Of a DNA stretch of 14,562 nt, positions 3,410-4,021 are shown in pieces (the first letter of the stretch is position 1; every line of letters begins with the position of its first letter). Both the position numbers and the translations under genes were made by a program. This DNA comes from a virus (Duplodnaviria; Heunggongvirae; Uroviricota; Caudoviricetes). The DNA lies in the IMG/VR virus record IMGVR_UViG_2534681835_000020; one strand, written 5' to 3'. The notes under the pieces are model-generated. The model saw only the letters and a program-made list of their open reading frames with translations, did no database searches and was not told where the DNA came from.

Positions 3410-4021
3410 TTAGATATCTCTGCTGTCTCCATTAGGAAATAAAAGATAATATGGATTTGCCTTTCTTGCTCTCCTTGCTTCACCTGGATACCTGTTAGTC
3501 AGTAGTTTGCATAATGAGCAGAGAACAACACTCAAGAAAATTCCGAATGAGAAGATCAATATCTCACCAAAAATCAATGGCGATATTAAATTTTCAGGAT
3601 TTAATGATAAGTCAATGTTAAAAACATATTGAGCAATACCAGTAAGTATCAATAATATAATCCCTATGGAATACATTGCTGTTTCCCAAACATCAGACAG
3701 TCTATTTTTGAATTGTTCGCTGGAGTAGTAGTTTGTTATAAAGTCAGAAAAATCACTCTCATATGCATCATCTTTAGGTGATGTTAGAAATCCTCTGTCT
3801 CTCCATACCTTCTCCCAATTAGTCGATTCTTTTTTTAAGGAAAAATAAATATGTATTGCCAAAAGGATAGCCAAAATTGGTGTTAGCTCTAAAAAATAGA
3901 ATGTTATGGAATAAATACTGCCATGTTCAAACTCATCTGGGACTATCATGTATGCACAAAAATAAATTGAAAAGTACACCATGCAGATAGTTAGCAATTC
4001 TTTAGTATCTTTTCTGCTCAC
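3410..4021 (-). CDS. Hypothetical integral membrane protein (about four predicted transmembrane helices), strongly AT-rich gene
   Basis: 203-aa ORF with GTG start preceded by aaaggggg (Shine-Dalgarno-like). Hydrophobic segments LLTICMVYFSIYFCAYMIV, ITFYFLELTPILAILLAIHIYF, AMYSIGIILLILTGIAQYVF, LISPLIFGEILIFSFGIFLSVVLCSL. Base composition is far more AT-rich than the flanks. Confidence 0.6.
   Translation of the reverse strand: MSRKDTKELLTICMVYFSIYFCAYMIVPDEFEHGSIYSITFYFLELTPILAILLAIHIYFSLKKESTNWEKVWRDRGFLTSPKDDAYESDFSDFITNYYSSEQFKNRLSDVWETAMYSIGIILLILTGIAQYVFNIDLSLNPENLISPLIFGEILIFSFGIFLSVVLCSLCKLLTNRYPGEARRARKANPYYLLFPNGDSRDI

Follow-up and report, generated by a model that had tools for sequence, protein, structure and literature searches.

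The DNA analyzed here is a stretch of 14,562 nt assigned to the Caudoviricetes (IMG/VR record IMGVR_UViG_2534681835_000020), the whole of which is called the window below. It carries on its minus strand a small gene at 3410..4021, the target of this work. Sequence comparison indicates that this gene very probably encodes a divergent homologue of SieA, the inner-membrane superinfection exclusion protein of phage P22. The SieA family is already known and the target is not a categorically new protein; it is an unannotated member of this family on satellites of the phage-inducible chromosomal island (PICI) type. Homology, predicted topology, synteny, composition, coding constraint and locus history were established for the gene as described in the following paragraphs. 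From these data we infer its function, target range and expression in Escherichia coli strain 8E, and consider it likely that the protein works as a SieA-type exclusion protein.

The list of open reading frames (ORFs) of the window contains an intact ORF of 203 codons with exactly this span, and RefSeq annotates a coding sequence with identical bounds as hypothetical protein WP_000087356.1. The RefSeq record concerned, NZ_CP077465.1, is the chromosome of E. coli O111:H8 strain 8E; it aligns with the window over 13.4 kb at 99.96% identity and shows no difference from it at 3300-4400. Translation starts at a GTG codon that is preceded by the Shine-Dalgarno (SD) sequence AAGGGGG at 4027-4033. The GC content of the gene (0.33) is the minimum among all 612-nt stretches of the window (mean 0.48, standard deviation 0.055), and its GC3 is 0.30; an earlier note, made from the letters of the window alone, had correctly described an AT-rich compositional outlier encoding about 200 amino acids. 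Since stop codons are AT-rich, a long open frame of this composition is improbable by chance, and by our own arithmetic the probability of 203 stop-free codons is approximately 1.5e-7.

BLASTP aligned the target with P22 SieA (NP_059639) at 29% over 108 aa (E 8e-8) and with the type B SieA of HS1 (E. coli HS, EcHS_A0321; L006 40463..41101) at 34% over 118 aa (E 2e-9). A phmmer search of 1.84 billion representative proteins led from the target to protein P0004 (E 4.9e-9), which bears the SieA Pfam tag PF26849 and matches PHROG 7745 at 8e-11. The target itself has a single PHROG match, phrog_7745 'superinfection exclusion SieA-like', which is weak (E 4.4e-4). It clusters with proteins of Citrobacter, Serratia and Providencia/Proteus at 31-50%, and phrog_7745 is also the sole match for the Citrobacter (P0003; 2.2e-6, nearly full length) and Serratia (P0020; 4.8e-4) members of this clade; HS1 SieA matches it at 6e-21. 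The PHROG alignment of the Citrobacter protein sets the second transmembrane (TM) helix of the clade on TM1 of P22 SieA. Comparison of the clade profile with a type A SieA profile by hhalign gave a probability of 96.1% (E 2.9e-9, 100 columns). The clade is under coding constraint between genera, where pN (0.33-0.48) is below pS (0.72-0.92); the E. coli alleles have 7 variable sites only, and within-species dN/dS is uninformative. Searching 50,697 phage records with the target by tblastn yielded no match at E 0.01, a search for which P22 SieA is too distant, and the clade is absent from sequenced phages. A scan of the GTDB species-representative genomes with the clade profile returned no locus.

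The family-wide alignments contain two motifs: YSSE.F.NR(L/I)SD precedes the penultimate helix, and (N/G)RYPGEA..(R/N)K follows the last one. In the target the first reads YSSEQFKNRLSD (3692..3727, minus strand, residues 99-110) and lies directly before TM3, on the predicted cytoplasmic side. Alignments of 22 and 46 family members, types A and B included, show N106, R107 and D110 to be invariant and S100 nearly so. The second motif, TNRYPGEARRARK (3461..3499, minus strand, residues 175-187), is found in the C-terminal tail after TM4, which is likewise predicted to be cytoplasmic; R177 and P179 do not vary in either alignment, and A182 is invariant in one of them and almost so in the second.

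Hydropathy analysis gives the target four TM segments at residues ~9-27, 38-56, 113-136 and 147-170, encoded on the minus strand by nt 3941-3997 (TM1), 3854-3910 (TM2), 3614-3685 (TM3) and 3512-3583 (TM4). The distribution of lysine and arginine (three in the N-terminus, none in loop 1, eight in the central loop, none in loop 3 and seven in the C-tail) predicts a cytoplasmic location for both termini and for the central loop of 54 aa (N-in/C-in). An AlphaFold2 model of moderate confidence (pLDDT 71, pTM 0.61) predicts helices at 3-26, 35-76, 104-133 and 148-175, in agreement with these segments, so that the four-helix membrane protein proposed in the earlier note is borne out at the level of prediction. 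The acidic loop reported there corresponds to KDDAYESDFSDF (3740..3775, minus strand, residues 83-94) in the central, predicted cytoplasmic loop. This stretch is specific to the clade, where it follows the pattern YE(D/S)xFxxF with Y87, E88, F91 and F94 invariant.

Scans against Pfam, NCBIfam and PADLOC assigned the target to no family above threshold and revealed no enzymatic motif, as had been stated before; the Pfam copy used does not contain the PF26849 model, and P22 SieA itself is unmatched there. A profile search of the PDB sequences found nothing. Below threshold, the target matches Pfam MnhB (PF04039; E 0.017, 15.7 bits against a cut-off of 22.5) and TIGR00943 (13.9 against 139.75 bits), which might point to a housekeeping membrane or transporter subunit of the MnhB/Mrp type, the kind of homology that had been named as a possible objection to an exclusion protein. 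Both scores are far under the family cut-offs and stem from hydrophobic helices only; furthermore, the gene is accessory (103/5,426 genomes) and always located in mobile elements, and no solved transporter fold is matched. We therefore rejected the MnhB/DUF1634 matches as sub-threshold hydrophobic noise and regard a housekeeping role as next to impossible.

The position of the gene agrees with its homology to sieA. Directly adjacent is the 3' remnant of a DNA-ejection gene of the P22 gp16 type (2948/3025..3391, plus strand), annotated in RefSeq as a pseudogene 'injection protein'. The remnant matches phrog_770 'DNA transfer protein' (E 1.3e-36), is 99.7% identical to the 3' end of an intact 701-aa gene in E. 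coli O26 RM10386, and ends, in convergent orientation, at a distance of 18 nt from the target's stop codon. P22 has the same layout: gene 16 (11484..13313, plus strand) is followed 22 nt further on by the convergent sieA gene (13336..13830, minus strand, 164 aa). The gene is thus not isolated, in contrast to the earlier note, in which the remnant was not recognized. Examination of the neighborhoods of the homologues, a check proposed in the earlier note, placed the Citrobacter, Serratia and Providencia/Proteus orthologues in the sieA slot of P22-like prophages. In Citrobacter freundii (50%) the order is tailspike, ant, arc, mnt, a 105-aa ORF, the sieA-like gene, then convergent gp16 (PF26808), gp20 and gp7; in Serratia fonticola (41%) it is ant, arc, mnt, the sieA-like gene and gp16; and in Providencia/Proteus (35%) a complete late operon runs from coat to gp14, gp7, gp20 and gp16, followed by the sieA-like gene and mnt. 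Two IMG/VR contigs show the P22-like arrangement as well. The E. coli carrier of the target differs from this full P22-like slot in being a PICI that has neither mnt nor gene 9. Phages ST104 and N7 were also inspected for sieA and have other genes after gene 16.

SieA-like genes are not confined to the gene-16 slot, since on two further IMG/VR contigs (L021 574..1173 and L022 5995..6594) orthologues with 35-37% identity come immediately after a CI-type repressor gene (HTH_3 and Peptidase_S24), in the same orientation, within a lambdoid immunity region with N, CII, O and DnaB. The position beside cI is another classic place for exclusion genes expressed in lysogens. It is also the position of rexAB in lambda, and L021 encodes a SieB homologue near its sieA-like gene; together with the predicted nature of the target as a small multi-pass inner-membrane protein and with the abortive infection (Abi) family gene that fills the adjacent slot in other island variants, this could suggest an Abi or membrane-depolarizing effector similar to RexB, SieB or a holin, which kills the infected cell and does not block entry. 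Such an effector, raised as a possibility in the earlier note, is very unlikely, as the target matches no PADLOC model and neither the SieB nor an Abi family of Pfam, no sensor partner is present, and the sole homology detected is with SieA, a protein that blocks injection with minimal effect on growth (PMC10883804). The missing partner gene is not a problem for a SieA homologue, because SieA acts alone: the P22 and HS1 proteins are each sufficient to exclude P22-like phages (PMC10883804). Of the earlier proposal of a phage exclusion effector, the kind of function is therefore backed by homology and synteny to SieA, while the argument from an integrase-proximal slot fails (see below).

P22 SieA resides in the inner membrane and blocks DNA injection by P22-like phages; the type B protein of HS1 excludes the same phages as P22 SieA, and mutations that escape SieA fall in gp16 and gp20 (PMC10883804). 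By analogy, the four helices of the target would insert in the inner membrane with both termini inside, and the motifs YSSE.F.NRLSD (before TM3) and NRYPGEARRxRK (after TM4) would face the cytoplasm. The target alone may then block the DNA of incoming P22-like podophages at the inner membrane, possibly by interfering with how the conduit formed by the ejection proteins gp20 and gp16 assembles or works, and phages unrelated to P22 would be unaffected. The gene would represent an AT-rich 'moron' of the lysogen type, expressed from its own 5' region.

Several observations weigh against this reading. The similarity between the target and SieA is restricted to the C-terminal ~110 residues, and global alignment yields only 13-22% identity with types A and B (P22 16%, HS1 19%). 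Of the published motif FxRYPxEAxxFNK, TNRYPGEARRARK retains the RYPGEA core and the final K, with F1, F11 and N12 replaced. The precomputed PF26849 tag, present on P0004 and on type A proteins, is missing from clade members P0001-P0003, and the Providencia/Proteus member P0021 has no PHROG match. Foldseek searches with the AlphaFold2 model returned no significant hit in BFVD (best E 0.72) or in the PDB (best E 2.7). The experimentally characterized SieA proteins of P22 and HS1 are outside the target clade. A strict sigma-70 scan of 3300-4600 gave no convincing (strong) promoter for the target. Finally, the target sits in a decayed element and this copy is one isoleucine codon short of the common 204-aa allele, so that activity or expression could be lost here.

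Three types of SieA have been described, between which ~75% of the residues differ; in types B and C a further TM helix is present at the N-terminus, the motif FxRYPxEAxxFNK is common to all types and predicted to be cytoplasmic, and the SieA proteins of E. coli are stated to be of type A or B only (PMC10883804). With P22 SieA (type A) the target shares the homologous C-terminal ~110 aa including the motifs YS.E.F.NR..D and RYPGEA, the last three TM helices, the cytoplasmic placement of the motifs, the position and orientation relative to gene 16, AT-richness and the GTG start. It differs from this protein by 39 additional residues with a further N-terminal TM helix, by T...ARK in place of the motif parts F...FNK, and by the clade-specific elements W(R/K)(D/E)RGF and the acidic YE(D/S)xFxxF. 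HS1 SieA (type B) resembles the target in its four TM helices with N-terminal extension, its location at the thrW site of E. coli and its convergent orientation to gene 16; however, its N-terminal ~75 aa cannot be aligned with the target, and HS1 is a complete P22-like prophage whereas the carrier of the target is a PICI satellite. The target is not of type B, being 19% identical to HS1 SieA in global alignment, whereas HS1 and Morganella P0027 are 37% identical. Type C, known from Providencia, Morganella and Proteus, resembles the target in its additional TM helix at the N-terminus and in a C-terminus that is slightly longer, and the target clade includes proteins of Providencia rettgeri and Proteus mirabilis (P0021, 35% identical). 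The motif published for all types nevertheless does not fit the target clade: the target keeps the core only, while P22, HS1 and Morganella P0027 fit the whole of FxRYPxEAxxFNK. The target clade is thus probably a fourth type of SieA and not type C.

The target gene is present in 103 of 5,426 complete E. coli genomes, always on the chromosome, at least 95% identical, and labelled 'hypothetical' in every listed record. Its context was examined in six E. coli genomes and viral contigs (O26 RM10386, 789, SCU-115 and three IMG/VR contigs), and in each it resides in a compact element at the tRNA-Thr gene thrW. The element starts with a P4-type integrase and continues with an AlpA-like helix-turn-helix (HTH) protein, AntA/B, Ash, a TOPRIM-DUF927 primase, gp14, gp7, gp20 and gp16; these are followed by the sieA-like gene on the minus strand, a variable slot encoding an Abi-family protein or an HTH protein, and PerC. 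The genes gp14, gp7, gp20 and gp16 form a P22-type ejection-protein module, but none of the elements examined contains capsid, portal, terminase or tail genes. This organization corresponds to that of EcCIMP1, a PICI of E. coli MP1 that is mobilized by the P22-like phage Kapi1 (PMC11773190) and adds to superinfection immunity by unexplained means (Pick et al. 2025, PMC11773190). The two have in common the integration site (tRNA-Thr between proA and yagU), the integrase, AlpA, Ant, Ash, primase, gp14 and gp7 genes, the PerC region and the core of the attachment (att) site, with 97-99% DNA identity outside one cassette. They differ in that MP1 EcCIMP1 has other gp20/gp16 alleles followed by a co-oriented gene for a 232-aa lipoprotein. 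The MP1 element does not contain a sieA-like gene (tblastn E > 2); hence the EcCIMP1 phenotype cannot be ascribed to the target, and we rejected the target as cause of the published immunity. The predicted lipoprotein (L017 12632..13330, minus strand; MIKNLLLILSLSLLAGC...) fills the slot after gene 16, and its cassette is found in 76/5,426 genomes; it has no phage or PHROG match. We consider it a candidate cause of the superinfection immunity described for EcCIMP1.

Alignment of MP1 EcCIMP1 with a sieA-bearing variant showed 97-99% identity until ~160 nt into gene 20 and again from 73 nt upstream of the start of the sieA-like gene. The intervening ~4 kb are unrelated (gp16 is without similarity, and gp20 reaches 48% over no more than 187 aa), and most of gp20, all of gp16 and the exclusion-slot gene have thus been swapped as one ~4-kb cassette between elements that are otherwise 97-99% identical. 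In E. coli the target is cargo of EcCIMP1-like PICIs at thrW, carried with gp20 and gp16 in this cassette. The earlier note had taken the deviating composition as a sign of a separate horizontal origin. AT-richness is, however, a trait of the sieA family (GC 0.337 in P22 sieA vs. 0.471 in the phage, 0.363 vs. 0.476 for HS1, and 0.30-0.38 in all clade members), and the gene travels in one cassette with gp20/gp16; the low GC content is therefore no mark of independent acquisition.

The linkage permits two further interpretations. One is that the satellite lineage swaps gp20/gp16 alleles together with an entry exclusion gene, either the SieA of the fourth type or the lipoprotein, as a functional pairing, which we regard as rather speculative and improbable. 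If it were true, the satellite would bar helper-type phages while its own transducing particles pass, or set another exclusion specificity, by means of the matched ejection proteins. The other is that the PICI has co-opted the target to act on the linked gp20/gp16 alleles and not for generic exclusion, for example in helper-phage interference or in telling satellite-borne from phage-borne ejection proteins. Every examined context of the target in E. coli is an EcCIMP1-like PICI, and the ~4-kb cassette joins it to precisely those genes in which SieA escape mutations map (PMC10883804). The same clade is nevertheless found in complete P22-like late operons, at the ordinary place of sieA, and some of its members lie beside cI in lambdoid prophages where ejection genes are absent from the vicinity, which shows no dependence on a satellite or on linked ejection genes; P22 sieA, moreover, is equally linked to genes 16 and 20. 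A role specific to the satellite appears improbable, and generic exclusion of the SieA type is the preferred reading.

Signals for expression were sought upstream of the target. The cassette-specific 5' region (4022..4094, minus strand) comprises AAGGGGG (4027-4033), the spacer GTTGGT, a candidate -10 box TATGAT (4057-4062) and a weak -35 box; homology to MP1 EcCIMP1 starts again at 4094, 73 nt upstream of the sieA-like start. The SD sequence and the spacer are almost identical to those of P22 sieA, and the translation initiation regions of the target (CTAAAGGGGGTTGGTGTG) and of P22 (CTAAGGAGGTTGGTGTG) nearly coincide. The candidate -10 box, 35 nt upstream of the start codon, emerged when promoters were scored under relaxed criteria and the region was compared to those of P22 and HS1. 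A terminator scan of 3300-4600 detected none between the two convergent genes. Upstream of the target, 520 nt (4022..4541) are without an annotated gene; from 4094 onward this sequence is conserved in MP1 EcCIMP1. It contains a plus-strand ORF of 100 codons (4039..4341) that diverges from the start of the target and has no family or phage match, and the spacer 4022-4541 as a whole gave no match when searched against phage DNA.

Comparison with the intact element of O26 RM10386 (L014) allowed the history of the locus to be traced. Positions 1-1609 of the window correspond to the integrase and its downstream region (L014 16636-18245), and 1609-1713 to L014 30676-30780; 1609-1713 together with 3025-4246 cover the 470 nt at the 3' end of gene 16 as well as the sieA-like gene with the sequence upstream of it. 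A 12.4-kb deletion with its junction at 1609 has thus taken out the whole stretch that begins with AlpA, primase included, and extends over most of gene 16. The 105-nt second piece of gp16 (1609..1713, plus strand) is separated from the remainder by an insertion sequence (IS) of the IS3 family (1714..3024, plus strand; IS1203/IS629-like), which inserted into the gp16 remnant and generated a 4-bp target duplication, visible as an alignment break with overlap at L014 30777-30780. RefSeq labels this IS 'IS3 family transposase, programmed frameshift', and annotations of related copies support the assignment. The integrase-proximal position on which the earlier note had relied is an artefact of these two events and thus secondary: the combination of deletion and IS is found in strain 8E alone among the 5,426 complete genomes.

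The integrase of the PICI at thrW (1..1214, plus strand; Pfam Phage_int_M and Phage_integrase) is a tyrosine integrase of the P4 type, and the protein annotated for it in RefSeq (WP_016234638.1) is the same as in O26. The att core of EcCIMP1, TCCTATTATC, whose sequence was taken from PMC11773190, has a single exact match in the window (7548..7557, plus strand), and the homology to MP1 EcCIMP1 (window 5421-7560) ends there. This coincidence defines window 1-7557 as the satellite remnant. Integrase, PerC region and att core are retained, whereas AlpA through primase are gone; the element is a decayed derivative of an EcCIMP1-like PICI and is probably no longer mobile. Window and NZ_CP077465.1 differ by four single-base indels and one mismatch (335, 1950, 2341, 2557, 8581); in the window, 1 nt is missing at 335, which causes a frameshift in the integrase and leaves the two ORFs 1..447 and 318..1214. 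These indels may be assembly or homopolymer errors.

In spite of the deletion, the IS3 insertion and the possible frameshift in the integrase, the putative exclusion gene and its upstream region have come through the decay of the satellite intact. The alternative is an inert relic, that is, an ORF which is open only since the decay is recent and which is unexpressed or inactive in strain 8E. The restriction of the rearrangement to one genome, the negative result of the strict promoter scan and the possibly frameshifted integrase are in line with this alternative, and the target is identical to the O26 allele except for a 3-nt deletion, leaving little time for selection. On the other hand, the gene, the 520 nt upstream of it and all cassette-specific 5' sequence with the SD and the candidate -10 box are fully retained; the codon was lost in-frame, in or beside a short periplasmic loop; and 7 other contigs also carry an allele of 203 aa (P0053), which may be the same one. 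We consider an inert relic unlikely, and a working exclusion protein of the SieA type the better account of the gene.

This assignment gives a function-level name to a protein that is labelled 'hypothetical' in every source examined, is overlooked by PADLOC and the precomputed Pfam tags, and is encoded in ~2% of the complete genomes of E. coli, among them O26 and O111 lineages of Shiga toxin-producing E. coli. The SieA family would thereby be widened past the three published types, and the invariant residues N106, R107, D110, R177 and P179, all predicted to be cytoplasmic, should be useful for investigating how SieA blocks the gp20/gp16 conduit. SieA-type genes would also constitute cargo of PICIs that use P22-like helpers, linked to the very ejection genes that set SieA sensitivity, which offers an experimental handle on the interactions between satellite, helper and competitor.

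A number of other genes in the window are also of note. The variable slot upstream of the target, which elsewhere holds the Abi-family or HTH gene, is filled here by two minus-strand genes. The product of the first (4542..4763), a coiled-coil protein of 73 aa, has a TM helix at its C-terminus and matches phrog_6324 (E 1e-10) and, weakly, a SLATT-like family (E 0.034); the second (4843..5298) encodes a 151-aa protein with no assigned function. The conserved right arm of the PICI contains a PRiA4_ORF3 gene (6452..6994, plus strand) and a PerC-family gene (5567..5848, plus strand), whose product is identical to MP1 EcCIMP1_025, reported to be a LEE1 repressor (PMC11773190). Just outside the att core, an HNH endonuclease gene (7890..8549, plus strand; PADLOC type II restriction endonuclease, E 5e-21) and a convergent gene for a Dcm-type cytosine-5 methyltransferase (8464..9597, minus strand) form a probable type II restriction-modification pair. 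The indel at 8581 alters the C-terminus of the methyltransferase ORF (377 aa compared to 356 aa annotated). The pair is followed by a CP4-type block with CbtA/YeeU pseudogenes, DUF987, RadC/JAB, antirestriction and DUF932 genes.

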